Notes: generated by a model from the sequence alone, not told the origin. A stretch of DNA of 55,654 nucleotides from Candidatus Omnitrophota bacterium (GCA_026387405.1 JAPLLV010000054.1:1-55654); one strand, 5' to 3'. Counted from the first letter of the stretch, positions 10,988-55,049 are shown. Numbers and translations: made by a program.

Positions 10988-11002
10988 TCCTATTATCCAC
11001 AC

Positions 11003-11078: not shown

Positions 11079-11080
11079 AA

Positions 11081-21743: not shown

Positions 21744-23076
<1,333 letters not shown>

Positions 23077-36748: not shown

Positions 36749-37678
36749 CTATATTTTCTCAATCACTGCCTGGGCTAAAAGCGGCAGCATGATCTCATGA
36801 TGCCCGATAATATAATAACCTTTACCGCCGGACATAACCGGGCGCGATACCACATTCTGCTGCGGGCGGTAATGAAAGATCATATCAAAATTGGCGGTGA
36901 CAAAATCCTTGACCTTGCTGCCCAGGTTGCGGGATAGATTCAGCGCCTTTAGAAATACCTCCGGCAATACTACTGCCGAGCCGAAATTAAGCACCACGCC
37001 GCCGCGATTCAGTTTGGAGATATTCTCCACCAGGGTATGAAAATCCCTCAAAGAACCTTCGGCAGTGAGCGCGGCATTAAAGCTGGGGTGCTGATGGATG
37101 ATATCCGTGCCTATTGCCACAAATACGCAGACCGGAATATTATTCTTATAGGCGTTATAGAGCAGGCTAAGGTTCTTATAGGGGAGCTTTGAGGCGTCTA
37201 TCTTACTGGCAATAGCATAACCTAAACCATATCCCTGGCGCACGCCCTGTCTCACCGCTTCATTTAAAAACTCCGCGGTCTCCTGGCCCATGCCGAACCT
37301 GCCGGTCTTTAGTTCCTTAGCCACGTCCTCGGAGGTCTTGCCCTGCAAGGCGATCTCAAAATCATGGATAATACCCGCGCCGTTCAGGCATATACAGGTA
37401 ATTACCTTCTTCTTAATCAGCTCTATGACTATGGGGTTAAGGCCGCACTTGATCACATGCGCCCCGGCCATAAAGATGACGCCTTTTTTGGCCTTGCGCG
37501 CCTTAACTACTGCTTCAGCCACAGCCTTCAAATCGCTTGCCTTTAATATGTGCGGCAGGGAGTTGTAGAAAGCGGCGAAACTCCGGCCCTTGGCAGGCGG
37601 CTGGGCGAAATCCTGGCTGCGCACCTTACTAAAGCGCTTTTTCAGCGAATATGTCTTTACCTTATTAATATTGAGCAT
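36749..37678 (-). CDS. Conserved protein with deoxyhypusine-synthase-like fold, neighbour of heptose genes
   Basis: GAHVIKCG, NGAGIIHD, IGTDIIHQHP, GSAVVLPEVFLKA, GHHEIMLPLL; family assignment from memory. Confidence 0.6.
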   Translation of the reverse strand: MLNINKVKTYSLKKRFSKVRSQDFAQPPAKGRSFAAFYNSLPHILKASDLKAVAEAVVKARKAKKGVIFMAGAHVIKCGLNPIVIELIKKKVITCICLNGAGIIHDFEIALQGKTSEDVAKELKTGRFGMGQETAEFLNEAVRQGVRQGYGLGYAIASKIDASKLPYKNLSLLYNAYKNNIPVCVFVAIGTDIIHQHPSFNAALTAEGSLRDFHTLVENISKLNRGGVVLNFGSAVVLPEVFLKALNLSRNLGSKVKDFVTANFDMIFHYRPQQNVVSRPVMSGGKGYYIIGHHEIMLPLLAQAVIEKI

Positions 37679-37781
37679 GCACTTTCCTTTACCAGAACAT
37701 ATAATTTTAGCATAAATTCCGTTTTAAGCAACTATTTTTGCCTGGTTTTCCCTTCCCCTCTGCTCTTATTTGCTTCGCTAA

Positions 37782-37835
37782 AGAGACTGTCCCCGCAGCG
37801 CTATACCGTTAGTGGTGTTGGAGGGGACTGTCTCT
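37782..37835. repeat. About 55-bp GGGGACAGTCCCC-bounded element, copy 1
   Basis: Reverse complement aligns closely with 53919-53973. Confidence 0.88.
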
Positions 37836-37842
37836 GCCTTTC

Positions 37843-38017
37843 GTTTGCTTCGGGATATTGTTCGCGCACGAATTTTTTCGCCGCGCGCTACAGTTTACGG
37901 TTCGCTCCGTTCGCCAACGTCTGGGACCAACTTACGGTAGCTCACTTTGCTCACCGTAAAACTTTGCGCTTTTGCCGAAAAAATTCTAATTGTGCGCTCA
38001 CAACATCCCTCGCAAAC
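37843..38017. repeat. About 175-nt imperfect long hairpin
   Basis: Nested stems GGGATATTGT/ACAACATCCC, GAATTTTTTCG/CGAAAAAATTC, TTTACGGT/ACCGTAAA. Confidence 0.8.
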
Positions 38018-38095
38018 TCAAACACCGTTCGAAACATGCCTCGCCACCGCTAAAGCAAACCACGAAACTAAAAAATAGAAACGGTGTCTACTTTT

Positions 38096-38707
38096 CTACA
38101 TATTTTTTAAGCGTAAAAAATACAAAAGATCTGATTCATTAGATTTTCTTTTGAAACTAAAAAGATCCTCCCAATGCCCTAGACGCTCATTCATTTGTTT
38201 TAATCTTTGGTTCCTCGTTTCTCGAGGAATGTTTTGAGCAAATTGTTTGTCGTCTTCATTATACAAACCGTCATTCTTTAAGGTGTATTCGGTTTGTGTA
38301 AAGACTTCTTGTAACATCTCGCGTAAAACTTTCATGTAATCTTGCTTTGCAACGCTATCAAATATAATGTTACATCCCCAAGTTAAACAAATAGTAAATA
38401 AAACAAGAAAGAAAAAATTATAGGGTGGACTTAAGAAAATACTCTCAGACTTAGGCTGAGTATTATTCAAAAAAGAACTTAATAACTGCAAAAGAATTGA
38501 AATGACAAGCAACAACAATCCCCCCACTCCCTCATTTTTTTGGATTATCTTATTTTTAATTGCAAATGGATTGGATCCAAAATATGCTTGTGATTCATTT
38601 TTGATATCCTTGACCCCACTAAAAATGTATCCTTTTCCTAAAATCAAGGTACCGGCAATCCCAAAACATAAACTGAGCAAGATCAAATCACTTCCATTTA
38701 TCTTCAT
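38096..38707 (-). CDS. Hypothetical membrane protein (3 TM) enclosed by 15-bp inverted repeats
   Basis: SD GAGGAG before MKING; inverted repeats at 38071-38085 and 38751-38765. Confidence 0.75.
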   Translation of the reverse strand: MKINGSDLILLSLCFGIAGTLILGKGYIFSGVKDIKNESQAYFGSNPFAIKNKIIQKNEGVGGLLLLVISILLQLLSSFLNNTQPKSESIFLSPPYNFFFLVLFTICLTWGCNIIFDSVAKQDYMKVLREMLQEVFTQTEYTLKNDGLYNEDDKQFAQNIPRETRNQRLKQMNERLGHWEDLFSFKRKSNESDLLYFLRLKNM

Positions 38708-38773
38708 AATTGTCTCCTCGTGTAAATCATGATTTCTGAGGTAAAATGGGACCGTTTCTATTTTTCTGATATT

Positions 38774-38832
38774 ACAGACACTTTCCATTCTAATCGGGAA
38801 ACCGTACCCAAGCTACGCTGGAAAGTATCTGT
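38774..38832. repeat. 59-bp element M, copy 1 (ACAGACACTTTCC...GGAAAGTRTCTGT)
   Basis: Other copies at 41139-41197, 41345-41403, 43633-43674 (partial) and 44616-44674 (flipped). Confidence 0.92.
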
Positions 38833-38882
38833 TTCCCTTAACTTGTCACCTTGGGGAACGTCACCAATTCCTTTCTATTGTT

Positions 38883-39185
38883 TCAAATATTTGCCTTACA
38901 AGCATCGCACAATTGGATATTATTTATTGCAGCAGTTACTGGCACATCGTACGGCTGTTTACACTTTGAACAGAGATGCCGTAAGCCGCTATTATACGGA
39001 TACGTGCCTCCTTGTATAACCTTTCCTAAAACCAAATCATTCAAAGTAAGAAAAGGCCCAGATTGGCTTTTTTTCAGTTCCTTATTTAATATTTCTATTT
39101 TTCTTTGGGAAGCTTCAAATGCCAACCTAAAAGCATCACGTTGTTCTATCGCCTCAATATTTGAATCATTCGCCTTTTTTGCCAA
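38883..39185 (-). CDS. Hypothetical protein, coiled coil plus C-terminal CxxC...CxxC
   Basis: CSKC...CDAC. Confidence 0.65.
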   Translation of the reverse strand: MAKKANDSNIEAIEQRDAFRLAFEASQRKIEILNKELKKSQSGPFLTLNDLVLGKVIQGGTYPYNSGLRHLCSKCKQPYDVPVTAAINNIQLCDACKANI

Positions 39186-39307
39186 TATTAATGAAAAAAG
39201 GGGAAAAAAGGGGACGTTTCTGTTTTCTAGAAATCAGAAACGGTCACTATTTATTGCTTCTGGGGAGGTTCCCTAAAGGCCTGCCTACCGGTAGGCAGGG
39301 ACACTCC

Positions 39308-39386
39308 TTTTAAAACACGTGTTCCAATCTATTTATTTATCGCTAGTTATAAGCGCTTAACCTGTCACCTTGGGGAAACGCCCCCA
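39308..39386. repeat. About 78-bp direct repeat, copy A (copy B at 40540-40618)
   Basis: CGTGTTCCAATCTATTTATTTATCRCTASTTATAAGCGCTTAACCTGTCAC shared. Confidence 0.92.
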
Positions 39387-39391
39387 ATTCC

Positions 39392-40531
39392 TTATCTTAT
39401 ACCAAGAGCTGCTTTAACTTCCTCTATAGAAAAAAACTCTTGCTCGATTCCTCTCGGATAACTATCAAGAAGAACTTTACCGCTAAAATCAATAAAGAAA
39501 ACTTTAGCAAAAGAAAATTCACGACCATCAATCTCCCTATTATATCTTACAATAAGACGAAGAAGTCCCGCTTTGTATCCTTTTGCATCTGAAAGAAAGA
39601 AGTCTAACATCTGCTTATGGATTTCTTTAAATTCTATCTGAAAATCTTTAGCCTCTCCTTTCTTAATAACAGGAATAATGTGATTTGGCTGTATAGAAAA
39701 TATACCAAAACGGTTTAGGGAGATAGGTTTGTCTGGTAGTTTTTGTGCTACAAAATAATCTTCATAAATCTCTATATCAATAATATTGGATAGGCCAGCA
39801 TTTTTCAAAGATAGCGTAAAACTAGCAACATTATTCCCTATAACTGTTTTTTCTGGAACGACTCTAATAACTGGCTCCTGCGATAATGCGAGTTGATTTG
39901 ATGCAATTTTATTAGCCTGTACTGATATTATAATTGCCATTATTGATAAAGAGGTGGCTGTGATTGTTTCAAAAAATATTTTATTTCTTTCTAAGCAATT
40001 ACGAATACAATTGGGGAATATAAAGGGCGTTTCCTTCTTGTATTCGCGATAGGCATCGCCGAAGCGGCCGACAAGCTCTGGCTCTTCAATAAACTTAATC
40101 TCAAAGCATAACAATACCTTTACGCCTATGGCTGATATAAGAAAACCCCATTGATTCCGCCATAAGGCCCAGCCAAGAAGATAAAGAAAAAATCCCAGCA
40201 TCATTGGATTACGTACAAAACGATATGGTCCATTATTCAAAAAATGTTTGGTCGGCACAACTGGCACAGGCGTACCTTTACCTTTCACCAGCTGCCAAGC
40301 TATAGCCCAGACCATCCAAGGAACTCCTACAGCAAATGACACTCCTGAAATTATCCGCGATAACAATTCCGGCATAATCGGCTGCCTCATAAAAACATTG
40401 CCCATCCAGAAAACAAATGCCGGCATCCCGACTAGAAAGAGTATTGCACCCAGGAGGGTAGCCAGGGTACGCACGGCAACGCCATGTTCCTTCTTTCCTC
40501 TTTTGACCAAGAATTCAACTATGTCGATCAT
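39392..40531 (-). CDS. Chimeric ORF: isoprenylcysteine carboxyl methyltransferase/PEMT-like membrane domain fused to an unrelated AT-rich domain
   Basis: GPYRFVRNPMMLG and EEPELVGRFGDAYREYKKETP in the N-half; second TM and unknown domain after about residue 175. Confidence 0.7.
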   Translation of the reverse strand: MIDIVEFLVKRGKKEHGVAVRTLATLLGAILFLVGMPAFVFWMGNVFMRQPIMPELLSRIISGVSFAVGVPWMVWAIAWQLVKGKGTPVPVVPTKHFLNNGPYRFVRNPMMLGFFLYLLGWALWRNQWGFLISAIGVKVLLCFEIKFIEEPELVGRFGDAYREYKKETPFIFPNCIRNCLERNKIFFETITATSLSIMAIIISVQANKIASNQLALSQEPVIRVVPEKTVIGNNVASFTLSLKNAGLSNIIDIEIYEDYFVAQKLPDKPISLNRFGIFSIQPNHIIPVIKKGEAKDFQIEFKEIHKQMLDFFLSDAKGYKAGLLRLIVRYNREIDGREFSFAKVFFIDFSGKVLLDSYPRGIEQEFFSIEEVKAALGIR

Positions 40532-40665
40532 AAGGCTAATTTTGAAAACCCGTGTTCCAATCTATTTATTTATCACTACTTATAAGCGCTTAACCTGTCA
40601 CTTTGGGGGAACGTCCCCGGTGTGCTTAAAAAGGAAATTATCCCCTATTTTGCACAAACTATAAA

Positions 40666-41112
40666 CTACTTTACGCTAACCTCGTTTTCGAGTAAATTTA
40701 TTGTACAGTGTTGACTGCCTCCTGCTCCGACCTGAATACTACCAACATTTTTACTTCCTGTGCGTGTTCCCTGAACCAAAGCTACTAGCTGGTATGTCGT
40801 ATTATTGTTCAATAAAACTTCAAAATTGTTCTTACCCCAGCTCAATCGTTGGCGAAAAGCCATTTTTTCTCCTGAGGGAATATTTTCTTTACCTACGAGC
40901 AAAACGCCATTGTTAGTAAATGGCCCCACAAGAAGAAGCATTGCAGCCTCCCCACCTCCGATAGAAGACATACTTCTGACAAATCCCTTATCTAGAGTAA
41001 CATCGAAACTAACATTCGTAGCATTCGTTCGGTCTATAATGAAGTGTTTGGTACATTCAGCACAACCAGAAAGGATTAGCGCCAAAATAATGATGCTTAG
41101 CTTTTTTATCAT
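40666..41112 (-). CDS. Hypothetical lipoprotein
   Basis: Signal peptide with LSGC lipobox; SD AGGAGG. Confidence 0.8.
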   Translation of the reverse strand: MIKKLSIIILALILSGCAECTKHFIIDRTNATNVSFDVTLDKGFVRSMSSIGGGEAAMLLLVGPFTNNGVLLVGKENIPSGEKMAFRQRLSWGKNNFEVLLNNNTTYQLVALVQGTRTGSKNVGSIQVGAGGSQHCTINLLENEVSVK

Positions 41113-41138
41113 AATTTCCTCCTTTTAGTTAGCATTTT

Positions 41139-41197
41139 ATAGACACTTTCCATTCTAATCGGGAAACTGTACCCAGGCTACGCTGGAAAGTGTCTGT
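41139..41197. repeat. 59-bp element M, copy 2
   Basis: Near-identical to copy 1. Confidence 0.92.
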
Positions 41198-41344
41198 TTC
41201 CCTTAACCTGTCACCTTGGGGAACATTCCCAATCCCGATTCGCTCGCTTCTCGCAAATTGAATTTACAGTCTTTGCCGAATTTGAGTTAACGTCTTAACG
41301 ATGCAAAACCCTTGAAACTGTTTCGTATACTTCTTTGCACTTTA

Positions 41345-41403
41345 ACAGACGCTTTCCATTCTAAACGGGAAACTGTACCCAAGCTACGCTGGAAAATGTC
41401 TCT
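41345..41403. repeat. 59-bp element M, copy 3
   Basis: Near-identical to copy 1. Confidence 0.9.
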
Positions 41404-41443
41404 TTTCTCGCTTCACCTGTCACCTTGGAGAACGCCCCGATCC

Positions 41444-41800
41444 CTATTCGTAGAGAAAATCAACGCTATCGACAATGCCATCTTTAAAATGAACGAACTT
41501 ATTCGCCATTGACACAATATCCCACCTATACTCCCACTGTTCCTCGTTATCCTTATAAAATTGAGGAGCTATTTTTCTGTTGCCTATAGAATGGGGCTTC
41601 CCCCAAGATGCCAAAACATCTTCTTTTGTCATCCCCTTAACAACCAAACCCTGTTCGATTGCTTTCTTAATATTTGGGTCGACATCTTTTATTGATTGGA
41701 CGTAAGACACTCGATCAGCTGTCGATGGTTTGAACAACGGGCTTGAAGCACAGCCAGCGCATGCCATAGACGCGATCAAAACAACAATAATTTCTTTCAT
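41444..41800 (-). CDS. Lipoprotein with SmpA/BamE-like domain
   Basis: CAGC lipobox; GMTKEDVLASWGKP...EQWEY. Confidence 0.72.
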   Translation of the reverse strand: MKEIIVVLIASMACAGCASSPLFKPSTADRVSYVQSIKDVDPNIKKAIEQGLVVKGMTKEDVLASWGKPHSIGNRKIAPQFYKDNEEQWEYRWDIVSMANKFVHFKDGIVDSVDFLYE

Positions 41801-41802
41801 TG

Positions 41803-41828
41803 TGACCTTCCCCTCTTTAGTGGACAGG
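41803..41828. mobile_element. IS3-family-like terminal inverted repeat, orphan (second copy 43753-43778)
   Basis: TGACCTTCCCCTSTTTAGTGGACAGG resembles IS3-family ends. Confidence 0.55.
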
Positions 41829-41865
41829 TTGTTAAAATATTAATGCCTGTTTGCGAATTGACGAT

Positions 41866-42975
41866 TTACTTATCCCTTCCCGATGCTTTCTTAAGTTTAT
41901 TGAGAAATTCAGGATTAACAGTTTGTCCTAACTCTTCTGCTTTATGTACATCTGCCCAGGCTTTATCATATTCTTTGGCCAAATAATAGATCAAGCCGCG
42001 TTTTTGATAGGTCTCTGCATCGTTAGGGTTAATTGCGATAGCCTTTGTAAGGTCAGAGATAGCTTGAGACAAATTACCTTGGTCAACATAAACAATTCCA
42101 CGGTTGATATAAGCATCTGAACTGTTAGGGTTTATTTCTATGGCCTTGGTATAGTCAGAGACAGCTTCAGATAATTTGCCTTGTTCAGCATAAACAACGC
42201 CGCGGTTGAAAAAGGCATCTCCGCGCTCGGCAACGTCAAGGTTGGAATAGACATCTGCAGGATTAGCGCTTATTTCTATAGCCTTGGTATAGTCAGAGAT
42301 AGCTTGTGCAACATTGCCTTGCTTGTAATAAGCAGTTCCACGAGTATAGTAGGCAGCTGCGTACATAGGATTAATCTCAATAGCTTTAGTATAATCAGGG
42401 GTGGCTTGATACAAGTTACCTTGTTTATCATAAACAACCCCGCGGCTATAATATGGCCCTGCATCGTTAGGGTTTATTTCTATGGCCTTGGTATAGTCAG
42501 AGACAGCTTGGGACAAATTACCTTGGTCAGCATAAGCAATACCACGGTTGTGATATGCCTCCATATAATTAGGATTGATTTTAATGGCCTTGGTATAATC
42601 AGAGATAGCTTGAGCAAGGTTACCTTGCTTATGATAAGCATTACCACTTTGTAAATATCCTTCCACGGTCTCAACATTTGTATTATTCTCTTTTTGAGAT
42701 TCTATTTTGGGCCCTATATCAGAAGCCGTGTTAGGCTTATTAAGAGATGCCGCAGATTTAAAAATTACCTGCTGCCCATCAATAGATTCTACTTCATCCA
42801 TGAAAAGCGTTAAAGGAACTCCATAAAAATCTATCTTTATATACTTATCTGTTTTTTCAATTAACTTGCCTTCCATAGTTTTTCCGGATTTCAAAACAAT
42901 GGTTTCAGCAAAAGATAGAGATGGGAAATACAAGCTAAATACCAGCAACAAAATCACTAACCTTTCCTTCTCCAT
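41866..42975 (-). CDS. Exported tetratricopeptide-repeat protein
   Basis: Signal peptide; six to seven 34-aa repeats (AISDYTKAIEINP), visible as 102-bp DNA repeats. Confidence 0.92.
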   Translation of the reverse strand: MEKERLVILLLVFSLYFPSLSFAETIVLKSGKTMEGKLIEKTDKYIKIDFYGVPLTLFMDEVESIDGQQVIFKSAASLNKPNTASDIGPKIESQKENNTNVETVEGYLQSGNAYHKQGNLAQAISDYTKAIKINPNYMEAYHNRGIAYADQGNLSQAVSDYTKAIEINPNDAGPYYSRGVVYDKQGNLYQATPDYTKAIEINPMYAAAYYTRGTAYYKQGNVAQAISDYTKAIEISANPADVYSNLDVAERGDAFFNRGVVYAEQGKLSEAVSDYTKAIEINPNSSDAYINRGIVYVDQGNLSQAISDLTKAIAINPNDAETYQKRGLIYYLAKEYDKAWADVHKAEELGQTVNPEFLNKLKKASGRDK

Positions 42976-42993
42976 TATTCCTCCATCTCTCCA

Positions 42994-43059
42994 TTAAGAT
43001 AGTGCTGCATGTTTTTTGTATTCGGAAGAACTCAGGTAACCGAGCGTCGAATGCGCCCT
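42994..43059 (-). pseudogene. IS3-family transposase C-terminal relic
   Basis: Manual translation RAHSTLGYLSSSEYKKHAALS* matches the HS.LGY.SP..YE integrase-core tail. Confidence 0.7.
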
Positions 43060-43126
43060 TTTAAACAAAAAGGACTCTGAACGGTTAAGTCCAGCCCATT
43101 GTGGAATTGACTAAAAACAAGTTAAC

Positions 43127-43567
43127 CTATTTATCTCTACCAGAGTCCCCCTTTAACAGTTTGAGGAATTCAGGTTCAATGGTAAGCCCTAATTCTTCTG
43201 CTTTATTTACATCTGCCCAAGCCTTGTCATATTCTTTTGTTTTATAATAGGCACGCCCGCGGCCACGGTAGGCCCCTCCATCATTAGGGTTAATTTCAAT
43301 GGCCTTGGTATAGTCAGAGATGGCTTGAGTAAAGTTGCCTTGTTGAACATAGGCAGACCCACGGAGGTCGTAGGCCATTGCATAATTAGGGTCAATTTTA
43401 ATGGCCTTGGTATAGTCAGAGATGGCTTGAGAATAGTTACCTTTACCGGCATAGAAAAGCCCACGATTAAAATACTCTTCCGCAGTCTCAGCATAGACAG
43501 AAGAAACACTTAAAAATAATATCCCTACTAAAAAAAACATCATTATTCTGGAACTATTGTGCTTCAT
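43127..43567 (-). CDS. Short exported TPR protein, paralog of 41866-42975
   Basis: Signal peptide, three TPRs, shared tail KAWADV.KAEELG...PEFL..LK..SGRDK. Confidence 0.9.
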   Translation of the reverse strand: MKHNSSRIMMFFLVGILFLSVSSVYAETAEEYFNRGLFYAGKGNYSQAISDYTKAIKIDPNYAMAYDLRGSAYVQQGNFTQAISDYTKAIEINPNDGGAYRGRGRAYYKTKEYDKAWADVNKAEELGLTIEPEFLKLLKGDSGRDK

Positions 43568-43842
43568 CTTTTACCTCCTCGTTAAGAAACTAACGCCTGT
43601 TTTTCATACTCAAAAGGGCTTAAATAACCAAGTAATCGGGAAACTGTACCCAAGCTACGTTGGAAAGTGTCTGTTTCCCTGTTTCCCTGCATTCTTTGTG
43701 CCAATCGAGATTAATTGTAATATGTAAAATTAACAAAACCAAAATTGTGAAATGACCTTCCCCTGTTTAGTGGACAGGTTATTAAGTTATAACACCTGCT
43801 GCTTAAACTGCTCCTTTACTTTGGGGCGCGTAAGGTAATAAA

Positions 43843-44448
43843 TTAAAAATAATCAGAATGCTTGAGTAACATTGCGTGGTAATTAAAGAGCCAATATCCG
43901 TAATACAAAAGGAGAATCACCGAAGCACAAATTGTTAATATTCGGCCCTGTGTTTTTAGGAGTAACAAGGTCACTGCACTTATCAATGACAATAAGCTGA
44001 GAATGATGTAAGAAATACCCCATAGACGAAGGTGCGGTTTAAGAAGCGAACTGTCAAAAAAGTTACCAATTCCTGAATAAAGAAAAGTAAGGGATACCGA
44101 GATAATAAAAATTCCATAGATTGTCACACCAACGAGCCTCTTTTTAGGCGTTGGATATAATAAGGTTACAAATAAACATACCCAAAACATTAAATCAAAG
44201 CTTTTTATAAATAATATTGACAGTAGCGAGCGGTCTTTTAAGAAAATAAATAAAGCTTTCGAAAAAGGATAGGAGATTCCATGGAGAGTACGTAGTAAAT
44301 TATACAATAAAATCTTTACTGGCTCCCCCAGGTTCTCTTTAGTAACAAACGCCAACAAAGGTTTATACCAAAATAAAAAAAATTGCGTGACGATAAAAAC
44401 CGTTACCCCAAATATAATGCTCTTAATAAGTAACTTGCCGTTTTTCAT
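43843..44448 (-). CDS. Polytopic membrane protein with a probably frameshifted 3' end
   Basis: SD GGAG before MKNGK; out-of-frame YYLTRPKVKEQF just past the stop. Confidence 0.6.
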   Translation of the reverse strand: MKNGKLLIKSIIFGVTVFIVTQFFLFWYKPLLAFVTKENLGEPVKILLYNLLRTLHGISYPFSKALFIFLKDRSLLSILFIKSFDLMFWVCLFVTLLYPTPKKRLVGVTIYGIFIISVSLTFLYSGIGNFFDSSLLKPHLRLWGISYIILSLLSLISAVTLLLLKTQGRILTICASVILLLYYGYWLFNYHAMLLKHSDYF

Positions 44449-44615
44449 TCGTTCTCCCAGTAGAGTCGATTTTCCGGCTATGGCCATACCAGATTGTAAA
44501 ATGGGGACGTTTCTATTTTTTCTTCAGCCTCCTGAAGCGATTAACATGAATAATCGCTTCAATATCTGATACAATTAACCGTATAATCGCGTCTAAATCA
44601 AGGCTTATTTATTTT

Positions 44616-44674
44616 ACAGACACTTTCCAGCACAGCATGAAGACAGTTTCCCGTTTAGGACGGAAAGCGTCTAT
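44616..44674. repeat. 59-bp element M, flipped and diverged copy
   Basis: Interior CAGTTTCCCGTTTAG is the reverse complement of the other copies. Confidence 0.85.
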
Positions 44675-44689
44675 ATACCTGTTTCCCCT

Positions 44690-44989
44690 TCATTTCTCCT
44701 TCAGTGTCTTAAGCGCCCAAAGGATAAAGCGAATAACGGCAATAATGGGATAACCAAACAAAGCAATGTTTTTGCCAAGAGACATGATCCTTATGTATGG
44801 CGTATAACCGACCAGAGAATATTTCATTTGCTTTATGATTTTGAACTTAGCCTCTTGGTGCTGGATTAAATAAATACTATTAAAATGCCTGCCAATAAAA
44901 TATACAGCCAATCCCAGGATCGCGATACCCAACAAAATCAAACCTTCTCTTGCAATAATTTTCTTAATGTTTATCTTTTGATTATCCAT
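44690..44989 (-). CDS. Small membrane protein (2 TM)
   Basis: IIAREGLILLG...GYPIIAVIRFILWA. Confidence 0.72.
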   Translation of the reverse strand: MDNQKINIKKIIAREGLILLGIAILGLAVYFIGRHFNSIYLIQHQEAKFKIIKQMKYSLVGYTPYIRIMSLGKNIALFGYPIIAVIRFILWALKTLKEK

Positions 44990-45048
44990 CTATAAACAAT
45001 CGTAAAGTGGTTTGGGGGAACGTCCCCGATTCGTTTCTAAATAATATA

Positions 45049-45717
45049 TTATAATCGAGATATGATAGAATGTCCGATATTTAGGATAGATTCCCTTGCC
45101 CTGCTCTTAAAAACAACAAATTTAAAATACAGGCTATTGAGATCTTGACCGGTTATATCTTTGACTTTCCTATTAACAACAATTGAGTATAGCGGGTATC
45201 CGGAAAGATCTATTTCTCGAAAGTTAGTTTGCTTTTTTATTTTAGCATATACATTTGAAGGACGGTTGGGGTCTTCTCCGATATTTAAAATCTCACAGTC
45301 TGCAAAAATATACCTGATATCGTTTTGAGAGTATCGCCAAAAATCATTTGGAAAACTATGATAAAAGTAATTTGACGGTACAAAAATAAGCATGATGCCG
45401 TTTGGACTACAGATGCGCTTTATATTAGAAACAGCAGATCTCCAATCCCTGATATGTTCCAAAACACACGTGACAATAACCACGTCGAAGCTTTCCTGGC
45501 CAAATTTCTCAACAAGTTTTTCTGCAGGACAGATTAAATCCACTCCGGGGCCGGGGATAATATCTACCCCCAAGTATTTTGCAGGTTTAAGCATTTCAAC
45601 AACGTAACGCAGGCTACCGTTAACGTCATAAGCACCGATTTCAATGACCCGTTTACCTATCACTTCATCAACCGATAAATTTGCACCTACCCATTTAAAA
45701 CAATTTAAAGTGCACAT
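45049..45717 (-). CDS. Class I SAM-dependent methyltransferase
   Basis: VIEIGAYDVNG, LGVDI, SFDVVIVTCVLEHI. Confidence 0.85.
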   Translation of the reverse strand: MCTLNCFKWVGANLSVDEVIGKRVIEIGAYDVNGSLRYVVEMLKPAKYLGVDIIPGPGVDLICPAEKLVEKFGQESFDVVIVTCVLEHIRDWRSAVSNIKRICSPNGIMLIFVPSNYFYHSFPNDFWRYSQNDIRYIFADCEILNIGEDPNRPSNVYAKIKKQTNFREIDLSGYPLYSIVVNRKVKDITGQDLNSLYFKFVVFKSRARESILNIGHSIISRL

Positions 45718-45825
45718 AATTTAATTTTCTCTTTATCTTTTGATTATCTATATATAAACAATCGTAAAGTGGGGACGTTTCTGTTTTTCAAAAATTGGAA
45801 ACGGTCCTATTTTTTGTAGCTCCGG

Positions 45826-46290
45826 TTACCTAAACTGTTCCCTTACTTTGGGACGGGTGAAGAAATAGATAGTTAGTATGTACAGTAATAAACCAAAGAT
45901 AACGGAAATATTATAACCCACGGAGAGCGGATAATGTACAGTATTTTTACCCAAAATCTTAAAAGCCTGATCCAATATGCCCCAAATTGCAACTAAGATA
46001 ATCCCAGTTAAAGACCATCTTTTTAGCCTGAACAGCCCAATTGTGGCTATTAGCGTAATAATTCCTAAGGGCAATGTTTGTTTTATCTTTGACTGATAAT
46101 ATTTGTCTATTTCCGCGATAGAATTAATCCCCAATTGCTGTGTGGTAGGATTTTTCAATACTTCAATTTTATGTTCCTGTGGCAGGCTGATAATTGCGAA
46201 TGATATTAGCGCTGCTAATATGCAACTAACGGCTGAAATCAAGTAAATCCAAGAAAACACTATAACTCCAATCGATTTTTTATTCTCCAC
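45826..46290 (-). CDS. Membrane protein (4 TM) with C-terminal TRPKVREQF motif
   Basis: GTG start with SD AGGAGG; hydrophobic helices. Confidence 0.78.
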   Translation of the reverse strand: MENKKSIGVIVFSWIYLISAVSCILAALISFAIISLPQEHKIEVLKNPTTQQLGINSIAEIDKYYQSKIKQTLPLGIITLIATIGLFRLKRWSLTGIILVAIWGILDQAFKILGKNTVHYPLSVGYNISVIFGLLLYILTIYFFTRPKVREQFR

Positions 46291-46354
46291 GCTTCCTCCT
46301 TCGTTAAGACATTAACGCCTGTTTTGGAAACGCCCCAGGTTCGTCTAGTTCTTA

Positions 46355-46489
46355 TTAATCCTCTTCTATCTCAAAACGACAGCCGCATATATTGCATTCA
46401 TAAATCGACATTTCCTCATTAGGCTCGACAAACCGCGTATCCTTACTATTACACTGAGGACATTCAACAGGCGGATTCCATTCAGGCAT
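46355..46489 (-). CDS. 44-aa zinc-ribbon microprotein (not in ORF track)
   Basis: MPEWNPPVECPQCNSKDTRFVEPNEEMSIYECNICGCRFEIEED; SD AGGAG. Confidence 0.75.
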   Translation of the reverse strand: MPEWNPPVECPQCNSKDTRFVEPNEEMSIYECNICGCRFEIEED

Positions 46490-46584
46490 AATCTTCTGCT
46501 CCTAAACAACTACTAATTGTTTATTGTTCATCTCTGGTTTCTGTCCCTATTGTAAAAATGGGGACGTTTCTATTTTTCAACGCC

Positions 46585-47001
46585 TTAATCGCCTATTATT
46601 TTTAGCAAGACCCGCTTTTTACGCCGGCCGTCAAATTCTGCGTAAAATATCTGTTCCCACGGGCCGAAATCAAGTTTGCCGTTAGTAATCGCGACTACTA
46701 CTACCCTGCCCATTATGGTCCTTTTCAGGTGGGCATCTCCATTGTCTTCGCCGCCAAGGTTATGCCTGTATTTATCTTTACCGTATGGCGCAAGTTTTTC
46801 CAGCCAGGCGCTGAAATCGCTATGCAGCCCCGGCTCATCATCATTGATAAAAATCGAACTGGTGATATGCATCGCATTCACCAGGCACAGGCCTTCCTTA
46901 ATCCCGCTCTTCTTAAGCTCTTCTTCCACCTGCGGGGTTATATTTATAAACTCCTGCCTGTTCTTTGTGTTAAACCATAAATATTGGGTATGGGATCTCA
47001 T
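46585..47001 (-). CDS. yjbQ: YjbQ family protein (secondary thiamine-phosphate synthase, UPF0047)
   Basis: [37 protein letters not shown]. Confidence 0.93.
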
Positions 47002-47038
47002 TTTTCTCTTCCGAATCCGGGGTTCAGGAAGTTCCTAT

Positions 47039-47506
47039 TTAATATTTAAGTCCGAGCCCTGTATCCATTTTCCAATTACCATCTTCTTTAATAAATACCG
47101 GAGAGCCCTGGGTATCATCTTCCCCGGAATATTTCAAAGTAACATTCATAAGTACGGCTTCTTTTCCTTCCCAGCCGGCATCGAAAGAAACCTCTACGGG
47201 TGATTTGTCCGTTAGTTTCATGCCATATTGTGCGATCATTTTAATAACATTGCTCGAGGCATATCTTTTATATGACTCGATATCTCTTTTTTGTATCGCC
47301 ATCCTGATCTCTTCGAAAATAGGCATAACTTCACTAAGCGCAGCGGATTCCTTATAATTACTGCTGTTAAATGATTTAGAATTATAGACATGCCCGAAGG
47401 ATTCGAATGTCCCTTCCTCCAGGGCACGCACTTGTTGTAATGATAGTAGATTATAGCTAAAGATTACAAGCAGACATACCCCTAATAAAATAAACGATCT
47501 TCTCAT
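47039..47506 (-). CDS. Hypothetical exported protein
   Basis: Signal peptide; FIKEDGNWKM end typical of NTF2-like small exported domains; SD GGAGG. Confidence 0.7.
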   Translation of the reverse strand: MRRSFILLGVCLLVIFSYNLLSLQQVRALEEGTFESFGHVYNSKSFNSSNYKESAALSEVMPIFEEIRMAIQKRDIESYKRYASSNVIKMIAQYGMKLTDKSPVEVSFDAGWEGKEAVLMNVTLKYSGEDDTQGSPVFIKEDGNWKMDTGLGLKY

Positions 47507-47523
47507 TTCCTTGCCTCCTCTTT

Positions 47524-48024
47524 TTAAAACTTCTCCCAGTGCAGTATTTCTTGTACGCTTCTCTTCTCAGCCGCTTTAAAACTATTCTCCCCTTTAGGAT
47601 AACCCAGAGGAACCAGGCTGATAAGTTTAAAGGCATCGGAAAGGCCGAGTATCTTATTTATCTCACTGCAATACGGCTTTTTATCCCCGGCTACCCAGCA
47701 AGAACCAACACCTAGATCAGCTGCGGCCAGAAGGATATTTTGCGTGGCCGCGCAGCCGTCTTCCAAATAATATTTGGTATCTTGGCAGTAAACCGCGATA
47801 CAGGCCTTGGCCTGGGCAAGGAATCTTCCATTCTCTGCCAATCCCGCTATTCTCTTGAGCGTCTCCGCTTTGGTGATCACAATAAACTCCCAGGGCTGGA
47901 CTGCCCTGGCCGTAGGGGCAAACCTGGCCGCGTCTATTATCTTTTCTAATATCTCTTTGGGTATAGGTTTATCCTTATATTCCCTGATACTCCTCCTGAT
48001 CTTTATCAGCTCTAATGCATCCAT
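47524..48024 (-). CDS. Nitroreductase family protein
   Basis: RRSIREY, ARFAPTARAVQPWEF, NILLAAADLGVGSCWV, LVPLGYP. Confidence 0.93.
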   Translation of the reverse strand: MDALELIKIRRSIREYKDKPIPKEILEKIIDAARFAPTARAVQPWEFIVITKAETLKRIAGLAENGRFLAQAKACIAVYCQDTKYYLEDGCAATQNILLAAADLGVGSCWVAGDKKPYCSEINKILGLSDAFKLISLVPLGYPKGENSFKAAEKRSVQEILHWEKF

Positions 48025-48084
48025 TTCTATTTCCCTCCCTGCGGAAAAATCCGCGATCTTGGGGAACGTCCCCGATCCTTTGTT

Positions 48085-48801
48085 TTATCTATATTTAATT
48101 AAATAATAACATGTTTTTAAAAAAGCTTTCGGGATCTCGATCATAAGGTTTAGTTTTGACTGGCCATAAACCCGGTCAACAAAAGTAACCGGGACTTGTG
48201 CTATTTTCAATCCCTTGTGTTTTGCTTTTATGATCATTTCAAACAGCATAACATTGGTATTCTCGTCAATTTCAAGAACATTCCAGGAATCCTTTTTGAT
48301 TGCCCTGAAATTAGCCGAAAAATCATCTATGTTTAATCCGGATAAAATTTTTAAAGCGTTGTTTCCCAGCTTGCTGATCAAACCCTTGATAGTGGTACGC
48401 AAATCTTTCATCTCATAATAACTGCCGCGTATACTATGCCTGCAGCCAACCACGAGATCATAACCTTCGATAATCTTATCAAACAATTTTTTCATGTCTT
48501 TAACTGAAAAAGATAAATCGGCGTCACTTGAAAGAATAATTCCAGATCGCGCAAAATCATAGCCTTCATGAAGAGCCGATCCAATACCACGTTTGTTCTT
48601 CCTTGTTATGAATCTAATATTCCCGTACGTTTTATTCAATTCTAATGCCAGGCCTGAAGTATTATCAGTGGAATTATCATCGACAATGATAATTTCGTGC
48701 TTAACCTGATGAAAGAATTTTTCTATTCCGGGTATAAGTACCGCCAAATTTTCCCGCTCATTTAAAGTGGGCAGGATAATGGATAGTTCCGGATTTTCCA
48801 T
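48085..48801 (-). CDS. GT2 glycosyltransferase (polyprenol-phosphate sugar synthase-like)
   Basis: SIILPTLNE, IVDDNSTD, SDADLS, FVDRVYGQSK; start set at MENPEL. Confidence 0.9.
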   Translation of the reverse strand: MENPELSIILPTLNERENLAVLIPGIEKFFHQVKHEIIIVDDNSTDNTSGLALELNKTYGNIRFITRKNKRGIGSALHEGYDFARSGIILSSDADLSFSVKDMKKLFDKIIEGYDLVVGCRHSIRGSYYEMKDLRTTIKGLISKLGNNALKILSGLNIDDFSANFRAIKKDSWNVLEIDENTNVMLFEMIIKAKHKGLKIAQVPVTFVDRVYGQSKLNLMIEIPKAFLKTCYYLIKYR

Positions 48802-48806
48802 ATAAA

Positions 48807-49967
48807 TTATTTTGGTCCGCTGAAAAAATAAGAATAACCATATACGTCTGCTACCTGGAAAAAGTAGGCATTGATGATCCCCAGAAAAAGAGAATACGCG
48901 CAGAATGAACAAGCTAAAATCCAGAAGTATTTATTTCTATTCTCCAAAAAACCGGCGGATAGGAGCGCTAAGCCGGGTAAGGCGGGCAAGATATACCTCG
49001 TTATATACCCCAGGCCGCCCGTTGCCCCAATAATTGTAAGCCCCGAGATAAATGATAGCACCCATATTGTTTCGATCAATCTGCCCCGGGTCTTCAATCT
49101 TCGTATCATTTCAATAAACCCGAATAGATATATAGGTGCTATTATGACGGTATTAGTAAAGTAAAAATAAACGGGCCGCCCTATCGCCATTTTTAAGAAC
49201 GGGAACATCCGCATAGATTCCTCATTCTGGCGCGCCCACCAGGGCAGAAACGTATGGAAGGTTTTATAAAATAGAATAAACCATGGCGCGGTTATAAAAA
49301 GCGCGGCAATCCCGAGGATAGAAAAATCCTTAATCTTTTTTTTGGAAAACCCGTCTTTAAACAGGATGTATAAAAGCGCGGGGATGATACATAACGCCGT
49401 GCACTTGGTAAGCATAGCCAAACCAAGACTTACCCCTGATAAAATATACCAGATAATAACTTCTTTCTTTAGCGCTTTTATCGCGAAATAAACGCTTAAA
49501 ACGCAGAATAAACCCAACAAAGTATCCATCCATATCTTTGTAGAGGCATGGAGGGCTACGGGACAGATGGAGAAGAAGAAACTGGACAAAAGTCCAACGC
49601 CTTCTCCGTACAGTTCTTTGCCGATCAAGAAGACTACAAGGCTGGTAAAAACCGCTGCCAGGATAGGGATCAATATCTCCCACCTGGCTCCAAATATATT
49701 TTTAATTAAACCTAAAAGATAGGCGAACAACGGCGGATGATGAAAAAGCGGCTGATCGTAGATTGATCTTGGGAGCTGGTCAACCAGGGGTGTGCCTCGG
49801 ATAGAATAATCGGAAGGATTATTAGCTACCTTGTCTGCCAGGACCTGATAAATTACTTCGTCATTTTCTATGTGCCGGGTAAATAACGCGGGCAGGCGGA
49901 TCAATAAAGAGAACAAAAGTATGGCCGCAAGAATTAAGTTAACCTGTCCTTTTGTCGGTTTTCCCAT
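48807..49967 (-). CDS. ArnT/PMT-family (GT-C) membrane glycosyltransferase
   Basis: ENDE, FHHPPLF, multiple TMs, GLAMLTK, RYILPALP. Confidence 0.85.
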   Translation of the reverse strand: MGKPTKGQVNLILAAILLFSLLIRLPALFTRHIENDEVIYQVLADKVANNPSDYSIRGTPLVDQLPRSIYDQPLFHHPPLFAYLLGLIKNIFGARWEILIPILAAVFTSLVVFLIGKELYGEGVGLLSSFFFSICPVALHASTKIWMDTLLGLFCVLSVYFAIKALKKEVIIWYILSGVSLGLAMLTKCTALCIIPALLYILFKDGFSKKKIKDFSILGIAALFITAPWFILFYKTFHTFLPWWARQNEESMRMFPFLKMAIGRPVYFYFTNTVIIAPIYLFGFIEMIRRLKTRGRLIETIWVLSFISGLTIIGATGGLGYITRYILPALPGLALLSAGFLENRNKYFWILACSFCAYSLFLGIINAYFFQVADVYGYSYFFSGPK

Positions 49968-49979
49968 TTGTTCCCTGTA

Positions 49980-51008
49980 TTACAATAATAAAAAGCAGGC
50001 GAACATAATAATCAACCCTAAGGGGATGCCGTATTTTGCCCACTCGGAACTTTTTATTTTAAGTTTCCCCGCCGCGATTATATTGGGTATATTACCCGGT
50101 ATAAGCATCCCGCCGGATATTAAAAGCCCAAGAAGCGCGGCTTTGATCTGATGAGGCTGCAGGGTTGGTCCTATTTCGGCAGCGGTAAGGGTAGCATTAT
50201 CAACAATAGCTGAGATCATATTCATCCAGTAAAGCCCCTGATAGGAAATCCGGGAAATATATTCTTCGATGATGGGCTTAAACCCCCTGCCCAGGAATAT
50301 AAGCGCCATGACGAATAAATAAATCTTAGCCGTGCGCATTAATATATCCTTTATGCTTTCCCTCTCTTCCTTAAGACACGCGATATCTGCATGCCTGCCC
50401 GGAGATACTAAAAATATTCCCAGCAGGCCAAAAACAATAATACCCGATGCTATGTAATACCCGTATTCTTTCAAGATAAAGAAGAACCCGGCTTGATAAG
50501 GCTCGCCCCTGAGCTTGGCAATAAAAATAGTCGAAAGAGGCTCTCCTATGGGGGTGAGCGCCGCTCCCAGCCCGATGGAAAAACAGGCCAGCACCACAAT
50601 TCTTATCTTTGCGCTTCTTTTTAGTTTTAGGCAATGGACTATTTCCACCAAGACCAATGAAGCTATGATAGCGGTTATGACGCTGGAAAGAAAACCCAGC
50701 ACTACGATAACGAGGGCAATAAAAAATCTCAATCCCAGCTTTCCTACCATATTATCAATATGTTCCGCGAGAGGTTTTTGAAGGATGCGGAACAATAAGC
50801 CCGCGCAAAAAACCGCCAGGGTTATTTTTATAGGCTCGCTAAAAGCCTCTTTGATAAGGTGCGCATTCCACTGCGTTGTTATGGTCACTGCTAGGCAGCC
50901 CATAAAGAAGAGGAAAAGCTCAAGCTCTTCCTCTATCTTTTTTACCAAAAAAGGCAATAATAATACCATTGCCAGAATTATAAATAAACCTGTGTTATGT
51001 AAAGGCAT
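49980..51008 (-). CDS. DUF1646 family membrane protein
   Basis: GLGAALTPIGEPLSTI, SAIVDNATLTAAEI, GGMLIPGNIPNII. Confidence 0.85.
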   Translation of the reverse strand: MPLHNTGLFIILAMVLLLPFLVKKIEEELELFLFFMGCLAVTITTQWNAHLIKEAFSEPIKITLAVFCAGLLFRILQKPLAEHIDNMVGKLGLRFFIALVIVVLGFLSSVITAIIASLVLVEIVHCLKLKRSAKIRIVVLACFSIGLGAALTPIGEPLSTIFIAKLRGEPYQAGFFFILKEYGYYIASGIIVFGLLGIFLVSPGRHADIACLKEERESIKDILMRTAKIYLFVMALIFLGRGFKPIIEEYISRISYQGLYWMNMISAIVDNATLTAAEIGPTLQPHQIKAALLGLLISGGMLIPGNIPNIIAAGKLKIKSSEWAKYGIPLGLIIMFACFLLL

Positions 51009-51009
51009 A

Positions 51010-54942: not shown

Positions 54943-55049
54943 TTAAAGTTAATCCAGGTTAATCTATGTTAAACAATGTTAACCAAAGTTGCTTTTAAAA
55001 CGCAACCTCGGTTAACCTGGGCTAACGTTGATTAACTTTGATTAACCTT
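54943..55049. repeat. Inverted decamer arrays (..GTTAA.. period 10)
   Basis: Five units, a short loop and five inverted units; includes the upstream gene's stop. Confidence 0.85.

Follow-up and report, generated by a model that had tools for sequence, protein, structure and literature searches.

Selfish repeats and insertion sequence remnants in the spacers of an accessory gene island at a variable surface-glycan locus of an Omnitrophota bacterium

The most probable reading of the region described here, to which we assign a probability of about 0.6, is that positions 38,071–52,882 of the window (the whole 55,654-nucleotide stretch of DNA that was analysed) form a lineage-specific accessory island in an Omnitrophota genome, and that the spacers in the 10-kb small-gene part of this island are pieced together from small repeats of four or more kinds. 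Although the spacer motifs do recur, they represent selfish repeats and broken insertion sequence (IS) ends within the island, not the sites of a new cassette system. A first-pass annotation had read the same motifs as palindromes at which an enzyme acting in trans inserts captured genes one after another.

Results

The island and its genes

The insertion (38071–52882, minus strand) lies between a double-GT9 gene (52884–54938) and a conserved gap followed by an operon starting at 37678. GC content is 0.35–0.43 across 38–52 kb, versus about 0.47–0.53 in the flanks. The block had been taken to end at 48,075, but the GC profile and the related genomes extend it to 52,882. The description of short, AT-rich, minus-strand genes held up: an ORF scan finds sixteen small genes at 38096–48024, all on the minus strand. 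This co-orientation is not special to the island because every gene of the 55.6-kb window lies on that strand.

By ORF scan and Pfam, the small genes encode a 203-aa membrane protein; a 100-aa protein; a 379-aa PEMT fusion; lipoproteins of 148 and 118 aa; TPR proteins of 369 and 146 aa (TPR369 and TPR146); a membrane protein of 214 aa (238 aa in its intact form); a 99-aa protein; a 222-aa methyltransferase; a 154-aa membrane protein; a 44-aa Zn-ribbon protein; a UPF0047 protein; a 155-aa protein; and a nitroreductase. The two TPR genes are the only paralogues among them. In the window, a 55-bp deletion, evident by comparison with the four Logan contigs that cross the site, removes the C terminus of the gene at 43843–44487; what had been called a duplicated gene end at about 43800–43843 is the true C terminus of this gene. 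No homologue of the 154-aa or 118-aa protein was found among 5.8 billion proteins, and the single homologue found for any island gene sits in a context without any of the modules. A PADLOC scan of ten island proteins returned no family at a convincing score, its sole match being a marginal one of the methyltransferase to mad2 (E 2.4e-4).

Repeated modules cover 1188 of the 1891 spacer bases (63%), and the earlier impression that the spacers are assembled from a few modules was correct; motifs A and M exceed their counts in shuffled sequence. Spacer copies of motifs A, B and M and of TTAACCTGTCACC are confined within the window to 38.0–48.1 kb. All module copies point the same way as the genes, and B typically lies 5–50 nt past a stop codon. 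This pattern weighs against the main reading: it is not what random colonisation would predict, and it calls for selection, composite duplication or an oriented mechanism. Elsewhere in the window, spacers also hold palindromic repeats, from other families, and nearly every spacer has a hairpin.

The site in related genomes

Insertion relative to related genomes is observed directly. In ten related MAGs, the GT9 orthologue (54–66% amino acid identity; complete in eight, broken off where the contig stops in L011 and L014) lies 0.1–0.9 kb upstream of the orthologue of the gene at 36749–37678. An eleventh relative, L015, carries at its GT9 site a different insert, of 7 kb rather than 14.8 kb, with GT2-methyltransferase, B12-radical SAM, YdjC and PMT_2 genes. 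With almost nothing at this site in ten relatives and other genes in the eleventh, this part of the first-pass annotation is supported: accessory envelope genes have a hotspot at the junction of GT9 and operon. This junction is a variable position of an LPS-core locus, with the double-GT9 heptosyltransferase gene on one side and, on the other, an operon of a deoxyhypusine-synthase-like (DS-like) gene, a pfkB kinase gene, kdsB and kdsA. The conserved non-coding gap upstream of the operon (37679–38070, minus strand) is outside the insertion and is homologous to the gaps of L008, L011, L012, L014 and L020, in both orientations; within it are a long palindromic element at about 37840–38000 and a GGGGACAGTC hairpin at 37785–37832. 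The gain, loss or reordering of cassettes at the motifs that serial capture implied is absent from Logan contigs drawn from at least 12 samples (one contig, L185, is present in 12), in which gene order is stable.

Motif A is a REP-type repeat

Motif A has five matches in the window versus 0.27 expected from shuffles (5 versus 0.04 for a longer pattern). Two REP-type palindromic doublets, neither assigned a strand, lie at 45766–45815 (GGACCGTTTCC, loop, CAGAAACGTCCCC; DNA fold z = -2.6) and 39205–39252 (z = -4.3). The remaining copies are half-sites on the minus strand: AAAAATAGAAACGTCCCCATTTT at 46550–46577 and a second at 44493–44520, both with 0 mismatches; a variant found by motif scans, AGAAACGGTCCC, at 38743–38765; and a left arm at 38070–38095, at the insertion edge. 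The variant forms a perfect 15-bp inverted repeat with 38071–38085, spanning the gene at 38096–38707.

Across Aminicenantes and Omnitrophota MAGs, motif A occurs at no fewer than 119 loci, dispersed between genes along contigs of 0.2–2.1 Mb and mostly right after stop codons. Among the matches listed from other genomes, an inverted partner sits on the expected side, no more than 100 nt away, for 151 of 208 half-sites, and the window doublet at 45766–45815 belongs with these. Two Y1_Tnp (PF01797) genes, in the related MAGs L145 (70–777; E 4e-9) and L166 (6523–7194; E 2e-16), have motif A at both ends; their products are 47% identical. Motif A is a REP/REPIN-type palindrome family with a cognate Y1 (RAYT-type) transposase in related genomes, and the first-pass suggestion that such systems explain part of the pattern was borne out for this motif. 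In those genomes, the transposase would be what propagated it.

The likeness to REP/REPIN-RAYT systems extends to the combination of palindromic doublets with decayed singlets, and spacers composed of several repeat modules recall BIMEs. There are also differences. The 23-nt arm is nearly identical over two phyla, yet the RAYTs are not; a GTAG-type 5' tetranucleotide was not identified in motif A; and the island copies are mostly half-sites in a single orientation, with the RAYT known from related genomes. Motif A also carries an A-tract and a T-tract, resembling a bidirectional terminator, and no enrichment of a -10 box was found after it.

A MITE-like element and an old hairpin

The island holds seven copies of motif B, five spacer copies of the TTAACCTGTCACC module and four matches to motif M versus 0 expected from shuffles, to which a covariance model adds a fifth. 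The copies listed next are all on the minus strand. One complete B-C-G-B' element, at 39255–39393, was recognised by aligning it with its two halves in the metagenomic contig L034; it has terminal inverted repeats (TIRs) of about 24 nt, GGGGACGTTCCCCAAGGTGACAGG, and an extra hairpin inserted at about 39283–39303. A B-C-G element at 40541–40620 (repeat match 91%) is truncated at the start of the gene at 39392–40531. B-C-M composites occupy 38769–38873 (M 91.8 bits), 41134–41238 (repeat match 90%; M 95.2 bits) and, in diverged form, 41340–41444 (63%; 88.6 bits). Solo B copies without mismatches lie at 45012–45035 and, after the GT2 gene, at 48053–48081, the latter also in Logan contigs L002–L004. 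An M hairpin at 43633–43687, detected by motif and covariance model, is truncated at its 3' end and fused to an orfB relic; another, at 44611–44690, has normally oriented flanks around a 31-nt loop that runs inverted with respect to the other copies, and the model scores higher on the plus strand. The duplicated gene start of the first-pass annotation is a module, E, with one copy at 44970–45010 (95% repeat match) and a second, its ATG destroyed, at 45732–45772, upstream of the methyltransferase gene.

As exact patterns, B, C and M have no match in 185,579 species-representative genomes, a point against the main reading. The one true metagenomic match to B-C is L034, where B-C-G adjoins other genes and an IS right-end relic lies directly against a B element. 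Apart from the window, M was found only at the homologous site in L009 and L023, in whose gaps M-like hairpins show compensatory stem changes. We saw no Y1 gene beside B or M, could identify no target-site duplication or other transposition footprint and found no autonomous parent of B-C-G-B'. B-C-G-B' is probably a MITE/REPIN-like element of about 125 nt, with motifs B and C as its TIR and B-C-M and solo B as probable derivatives, and M is a hairpin apparently old at this locus.

With IS-derived MITEs, B-C-G-B' shares its size, the lack of coding sequence, its TIRs and its occurrence in another genome. Its terminal repeats resemble IS3-type inverted repeats (p ~2e-4 and 2e-3), at the same level as the left and right IS repeats resemble each other. 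Against this, no target-site duplication was identified and most copies are truncated or chimeric (B-C-M, solo B); a long-spacer REPIN would be an equally good description of the element. Because B and motif A have a 9-nt core, GGGGACGTT, in common, B could belong to a RAYT system rather than derive from IS3.

IS3-family right ends and probable passenger genes

GTTAA-N4-TTAAC had been listed as a palindromic module; it represents the 3' terminus of orfB from an IS3-family element. Together with the AACCTGTCCAC...GGTCA motif and the sequences correctly noted as IS relics, it makes up the last orfB codons and right inverted repeat of such an element, as alignment to L042 confirms. The right inverted repeat occurs in 14 loci, nearly all from Omnitrophota and often at contig ends, and is preceded by an orfB ending ...LGYLSPFEYEKQALVF*. 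Pfam assigns HTH_Tnp_1 to orfA and HTH_21 plus rve to orfB. Intact relatives in L042 (1593–3522) and L048 have orfA and orfB between imperfect TG...CA terminal inverted repeats and, as observed directly in both, a passenger gene that follows the orfB stop and precedes the right repeat.

The window holds 3' fragments of 23–69 nt only, which align to the intact relatives. They are relics, with no functional member among them, and their junctions match those of L042 base for base. Two are right ends (both minus strand). The first, directly after TPR369 at 41803–41853, consists of the last ~22 nt of orfB and the right inverted repeat AACCTGTCCACTAAAGAGGGGAAGGTCA; the second, at 43753–43800, overlaps the stop of the intact 238-aa gene, a junction seen also in L043. 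Three are orfB ends, again on the minus strand, each followed directly by a ribosome-binding site (RBS) and a gene start: ...KRAHSTLGYLSSSEYKKHAALS* at 42994–43062, before TPR369; LGYLSPFEYEKQALVS* at 43582–43631 (91% identity to L042 2768–2812), before TPR146; and the last orfB codons, KQALMS*, at 46304–46326 (repeat copy at 92%), before the 154-aa membrane gene. The passenger junction types are thus kept by four island genes, those for the 154-aa and 238-aa membrane proteins and the two TPR genes. Judging from these junctions, the four most likely arrived by transposition as IS3 passengers, with the transposase part lost afterwards. In this form, gene capture is probable for some of the genes; capture by a palindrome-recognising cassette system is not.

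This arrangement resembles transporter IS, in that the relatives have the orfA and orfB domains and terminal repeats of the family and the window retains both junction types of the L042/L048 passenger slot. It differs in that the window has neither a transposase gene nor a left end, and in that passenger-carrying copies repeat the last ~22 nt of orfB beside the right repeat. To our knowledge, IS3-family elements seldom carry passenger genes. Membership among mobile insertion cassettes (MICs) was rejected: no passenger is bracketed by both IS inverted repeats, the module map contains no unit with a left-repeat-like end upstream and a right repeat downstream, and every B-C copy is found farther downstream than the last right repeat.

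Integron and Xer sites

An attC site requires an R'' (RYYYAAC) and R' (GTTRRRY) pair 50–150 nt apart that closes an imperfect hairpin. A strict scan of both strands of the window for such pairs 50–160 nt apart gave 0, and a relaxed scan gave four overlapping matches, all of them within the coding sequence of TPR369, compared with an average of 2.7 in shuffles. Pfam found no recombinase in window ORFs of at least 150 aa, and no integrase or transposase ORF in the window. Both absences had been noted in the first-pass annotation. By eye, motifs A and B lack the 11-6-11 inverted-arm layout of the 28-bp dif-like sites of pdif/Xer modules.

Discussion

The island can be compared with other surface-polysaccharide loci. 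As in O-antigen-type loci and the minimal mobile elements and NIME mosaics of Neisseria, there are conserved flanks (GT9 versus DS-like/pfkB/kdsB/kdsA), a site empty in most relatives and filled in two lineages with different glycan or envelope genes, and a low-GC island with repeat-mosaic spacers. By that analogy, the whole island may have been exchanged through homologous recombination in the conserved flanks, although here flank-homology exchange is our inference and the relatives compared are species and genera rather than strains. The hairpins may now act mainly as terminators or other transcript-end structures.

One rival possibility is that the IS3 element built nearly the whole array as a serial gene carrier, by repeated insertion targeted to its inverted repeats and subsequent loss of transposase, with B-C as a further IS end. 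IS911 and IS30 are known to target inverted repeats for insertion, and the concentration of three orfB-end/RBS/gene and two gene/right-repeat junctions within 5 kb, all in the same orientation, fits such a process, as do the intact passenger-bearing copies in L042 and L048, the resemblance of B to IS inverted repeats and the B element abutting a right-end relic in L034. We nevertheless consider this unlikely, because the genes at 38.1–41.4 kb and 44.7–48.0 kb lack IS3 junctions, no single unit combines an upstream left inverted repeat with a downstream right one, and B-C-G-B' has both of its ends within 140 nt, as fits a MITE and not a gene carrier.

It is also improbable, to a somewhat greater degree, that the modules are vertically inherited functional hairpins (terminators, RNA-processing sites or operators) that were duplicated locally in an old operon-like cluster, with no mobility involved. 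The A doublets and M do fold well as DNA, the tracts of motif A are terminator-like, two relatives conserve M at the locus, with compensatory changes, and hairpins occur in nearly every spacer of the window. But motif A, which borders RAYT genes, hardly differs between two phyla and is not followed by an enriched -10 box; the modules made of orfB and right-repeat sequence are pieces of an IS; the island genes are not duplicates of one another; and the island itself is absent from relatives.

We give little credence to a non-integron cassette array, in which an HUH/RAYT enzyme or tyrosine recombinase acting in trans inserts genes serially at B, A or M palindromes. The co-orientation of modules and genes, the position of B just after stop codons, the unchanged recurrence of the B-C-M and B-C-G junctions (B-C-G also near other genes in L034), the hotspot nature of the site and the existence in related genomes of a RAYT matching motif A would all suit it. 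The inverted repeat around the gene at 38096–38707 might appear to as well, but its half-sites run right arm, gene, left arm, the reverse of a REPIN; because of this arm order, the gene is not carried in a REPIN. The modules, moreover, comprise four or more repeat classes with no relation to one another, of which two are clearly IS3 and REP; in other genomes, motif A is scattered over the whole genome; contigs from at least 12 samples show no cassette-level variation; and the sole homologue of an island gene has no modules. Nor are RAYTs known to move genes. Similarly little credence is given to the proposal that a single-strand (HUH/RAYT-type) or other recombinase uses the co-oriented B, A half-sites and M for serial insertion at this LPS-locus hotspot, the IS3 and REP identities of some modules being incidental, which would make a cassette system unrelated to integrons. 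An ordinary integron array or CALIN is rejected with near certainty, since despite small, co-oriented genes mostly of unknown function, many followed by structured repeats, the island has heterogeneous spacers without attC boxes or a conserved attC fold (the relaxed candidates being within a coding sequence and not above shuffles), and the window has no intI.

The object is of an ordinary kind: an accessory island that occupies a variable locus for surface glycans and is strewn with REP-type repeats, a probable MITE and IS debris. The main value of the analysis is the correction, in that an apparent new cassette system resolves into known element classes when related genomes are compared. Two by-products may be worth pursuing. 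First, a conserved REP family has a 23-nt arm nearly identical in Aminicenantes and Omnitrophota, with RAYTs 47% identical. Second, Omnitrophota IS3 elements carry TPR or membrane protein genes as passengers in a fixed slot after orfB, and a passenger-carrying IS3 would be a simple route by which envelope genes spread in this uncultured phylum.

Composition of the island and of its spacers

The low-GC stretch at 38,071-52,882 of this Candidatus Omnitrophota contig is best read as an accessory island, the spacers of which contain debris of an IS3-family element along with REP-type repeats, a hairpin local to the site and a MITE-like element. In this part of the window GC drops from about 0.50 to 0.35-0.43 (38-52 kb), bearing out the AT richness reported in the first-pass annotation, and the 16 ORFs at 38096-48024 all lie on the minus strand, as does every other gene of the window. 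A Pfam search found no integrase or transposase among the window ORFs, again as claimed, and the remaining genes are housekeeping and KDO/LPS genes. The repeated spacer modules also proved real. Motif A has five matches against 0.27 expected in the window, B has seven copies in the island, TTAACCTGTCACC has five spacer copies, and M has four matches against 0 expected, with a fifth added by a covariance model. All spacer copies of these four modules fall within 38.0-48.1 kb, and modules make up 63% of the spacer sequence at 38,070-46,584.

The first-pass annotation had proposed that a single enzyme built the region as a cassette array by acting at the palindromes. The array as described stands as an observation, and strict and relaxed scans for attC sites both came out negative; the proposed mechanism, however, found no support. 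Because all modules are strictly co-oriented with the genes and B habitually sits just past stop codons, an oriented insertion mechanism behind the layout keeps a small probability. Tandem gene duplication as the origin of the array was dropped, since paralogy within the island is confined to two TPR genes.

The arrangement is stable, the gene order over 37,995-48,600 being the same in contigs of other samples (one such contig, L185, is present in 12 samples). The supposed duplicated gene end is actually the true C-terminus of gene 43843-44487. A 55-bp deletion at 43843-43850, set between short direct repeats and seen relative to positions 2990-3060 of contig L028, shortens a 238-aa membrane protein to 214 aa in the window. 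All four Logan contigs covering the site (L028-L031) have the longer form, ending in ...TRPKVKEQFKQQVL. The deletion is either a variant carried by a minority or an error of assembly.

Wider searches gave little. The exact M and B-C patterns had no match in species-representative genomes, and scans of viral contigs for M, B-C and A returned zero or chance matches. The source genome is absent from the species-representative set, and identity between the deoxyhypusine-synthase-like (DS-like) gene at 36749-37678 and its Omnitrophota MAG counterparts reaches no more than 77%. Of three island proteins searched, two had no homologue and the third had one (56%), whose neighborhood holds no module; protein homology was accordingly dropped as a way to further arrays. 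PADLOC gave no defense family with a convincing score among the ten island proteins scanned, Rfam a single sub-threshold and spurious match at 37-49 kb, and there is no tRNA gene at the island edge. Literature searches yielded no relevant work on the motif sequences or on Omnitrophota integrons, and one on transporter IS elements brought no information.

Motif A is a REP-type repeat

The exact 19-nt pattern of motif A occurs at no fewer than 119 loci, mostly in Aminicenantes and Omnitrophota MAGs, where its copies lie scattered over contigs as long as 2.1 Mb. A complete copy is palindromic, with AAAATGGGGACGTTTCTATTTTT followed by a loop of 15-45 nt and then AAAAATAGAAACGTCCCCATTTT; of the 208 half-sites in 900 kb of motif A loci, 151 are paired with an inverted half-site on the side expected. 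Three Y1 transposase genes occur in these loci, all found only through a motif filter and all confirmed as PF01797. As the first-pass annotation had suggested looking for, two of them have motif A on both sides, in other genomes: L145 70-777 (Aminicenantes) and L166 6523-7194 (an Omnitrophota-type MAG). This is the textbook REP-RAYT arrangement. Clustering of all neighboring ORFs gave no recurrent protein family adjoining motif A.

The window itself has two motif A doublets with a bulged left arm (45766-45815 and 39205-39252), both of which fold significantly better than shuffled sequences, and half-sites at 46550, 44493, 38743 and 38070. Two other views of these sites were rejected: gene 38096-38707 is not a gene-carrying REPIN, as its arms are in the reverse order relative to REPIN doublets, and motif A is not a promoter element, as -10 boxes show no enrichment downstream of it, whatever the offset. 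Rfam searches of motif A doublets from other genomes gave only sub-threshold miRNA-hairpin noise.

The 23-nt arm is near-identical across Aminicenantes and Omnitrophota MAGs (L066-L184; for example, L085 5861-5926 and L092 5976-6041) despite their widely differing GC, and the two motif A-flanked RAYTs are only 47% identical to each other. Either strong constraint acts on the repeat or the system was transferred across phyla, with taxa here taken from record titles and subject to possible binning errors. The third Y1 gene, RAYT-type and in an Aminicenantes MAG (L146 7-672), is flanked by another palindrome, GGGGAATAGGTATTGTGTCCCC, and several loci have a related motif, GGGGACACAATA, close to their motif A copies.

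Motifs B and C and the M hairpin

Aligning 39255-39393 with both halves of a match in L034, a Hainich groundwater contig, defined an element of about 125 nt that starts with GGGGACGTTCCCCAAGGTGACAGG and ends with the inverse of GGGGACGTTCCCCAAGGTGACAGG. By this comparison, motifs B and C are the putative end of a MITE-like element, from which the three B-C-M and two solo B copies are derived, as chimeras or truncations. Its ends resemble the inverted repeats of the IS3-family element (p about 2e-4 and 2e-3), to the same degree as the two ends of that element resemble each other. In L034, the one informative locus of the metagenome scan for B-C (L035 is a GC-rich chance match), the element flanks other genes, encoding an ORF6N protein and a 159-aa protein of unknown kind, and thus it is a mobile or copied unit, independent of the island genes. 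B and motif A also have a 9-nt core, GGGGACGTT, in common, which makes a link of B to the RAYT system possible.

A sequence matching B-C, CCCCAAAGTGACAGGTTAAGC, is also present in the third locus of that scan (L036 14290-14441), about 60 nt upstream of an ORF at which the stored sequence ends. The ORF starts MVKYKRLNLAEREEISR, resembling the HTH N-terminus of a transposase, and could represent the autonomous parent element of B.

M folds well, with a stem of 12-14 bp and a loop of 31 nt. In the copy at 44611-44690 the loop is inverted and the flanks keep their usual orientation, a flip of the sort seen at DNA hairpins. M-like hairpins, in which stem changes are compensatory and the GTTTCCCGATT loop is conserved, lie directly past an ArfB-like ORF in two relatives (L009 and L023), in the gap between the DS-like gene and the double-GT9 gene. 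M is an old hairpin of the GT9/DS-like locus. We dropped the idea that it is a dispersed family, because the covariance model detected no additional M in other Omnitrophota loci, about 450 kb in all.

IS3-family right ends and passenger genes

The first-pass annotation had listed GTTAA-N4-TTAAC as a module of its own, together with IS relics. Both are real and are right ends of an IS3-family element; the module consists of the last codons of orfB (KQALxS) plus the stop, and is not a separate motif. The sequence AACCTGTCCACTAAAGAGGGGAAGGTCA occurs at 14 loci, nearly all in Omnitrophota and often at contig ends, and the ORF upstream of it ends in ...KRAHSTLGYLSPFEYEKQALVF. In contig L042 the element has orfA (HTH_Tnp_1), orfB (HTH_21 and rve) and TG...CA inverted repeats, and a second copy of the final ~22 nt of orfB lies beside the right inverted repeat. 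This suggests that the right end required in cis overlaps the 3' end of orfB.

A passenger gene separates the orfB stop from the right repeat in two intact copies, L042 1593-3522, with a 204-aa TPR/membrane protein, and L048 489-3300 (reverse strand), with a 498-aa protein. In these Omnitrophota elements the passenger gene occupies a fixed slot past orfB.

Both types of passenger junction are present in the window, aligning base for base with those of L042. In the first, the orfB end is followed directly by a ribosome-binding site and a gene: 46304-46326 precedes the 154-aa membrane gene, 43582-43631 the 146-aa TPR gene (TPR146) and 42994-43062 the 369-aa TPR gene (TPR369). In the second, the orfB tail and right repeat lie behind a gene: 43753-43800 follows the 238-aa membrane gene and 41803-41853 follows TPR369. 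TPR369, having both, is therefore taken as a 5'-truncated passenger-carrying IS. The L042 element is adjoined by a TPR gene and a small membrane protein ending TRPAVKAQFK, resembling window genes. From these junctions we infer that the 154-aa and 238-aa membrane genes, TPR146 and TPR369 probably arrived as IS passengers; an IS3-family element would bring some of the island genes and then decay to debris in the spacers.

Palindromic repeats beyond the island

Nearly every spacer of the window outside the island has a palindromic repeat, of families other than the island modules, and long palindromes likewise crowd the GT9/DS-like gaps of relatives. Carrying hairpin repeats in its spacers is thus a general habit of the lineage.

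One palindromic family (TGTCATTGCGAGC...GCAATC...CTCGCAATGACA) has copies at 10438-10516, 11003-11078 and 13489-13588, one of them inside the ORF called at 10526-11080. Terminator-like hairpins at 17531-17576, 23016-23069, 19194-19258, 24352-24413 and 54945-55039 have left arms made of short tandem repeats (TAGCGTT three times, GGTTAATTGGTTAGT twice, and others), and two of these hairpins are members of one family. Upstream of the DS-like operon (37840-38000) lies a long, imperfectly palindromic element of about 170-200 nt, which is also found, in either orientation, in the gaps of L008, L011, L012, L014 and L020. An element of about 50 nt with two GGGGACTGTCCCC palindromes lies in frame in the linker of the double-GT9 gene (53919-53973), encoding KGTVP...KGTVP, and a 90% inverted copy lies in a non-coding gap on the opposite side of the island (37785-37832); the two bracket the whole insertion and half of the GT9 gene. 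In L191, ~50-bp inverted repeats (GGCCTGCCCCCATTAGTTGT...) at 1-130 and ~4790-4840 bracket a 4.7-kb segment, possibly a transposon, that holds the sole homologue (206 aa) of island gene 38096-38707 together with radical SAM/SPASM, lipase-like and Exo_endo_phos genes and one for a 140-aa protein.

The island as an insertion at a variable site

The double-GT9 gene at 52884-54938 has an orthologue in ten related MAGs, with 54-66% amino acid identity, matched over its full length in eight and cut by the contig end in L011 and L014. In all ten it lies 0.1-0.9 kb upstream of the DS-like orthologue, which is followed by pfkB, kdsB and kdsA as in the window. The two genes being nearly adjacent in the relatives, the window has 14.8 kb of extra low-GC DNA (38,071-52,882) at this point. 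The comparison rules out one refuting case named in the first-pass annotation, in which relatives carry identical genes in identical order with the motifs missing. A different insert, of 7 kb, occupies the site in L015, with genes for a GT2-methyltransferase fusion, a B12-radical SAM enzyme, a YdjC protein and a PMT_2 protein. The hotspot proposed in the first-pass annotation is therefore upheld: the site, nearly empty in ten relatives and differently filled in L015, is a hotspot for accessory envelope and glycan genes.
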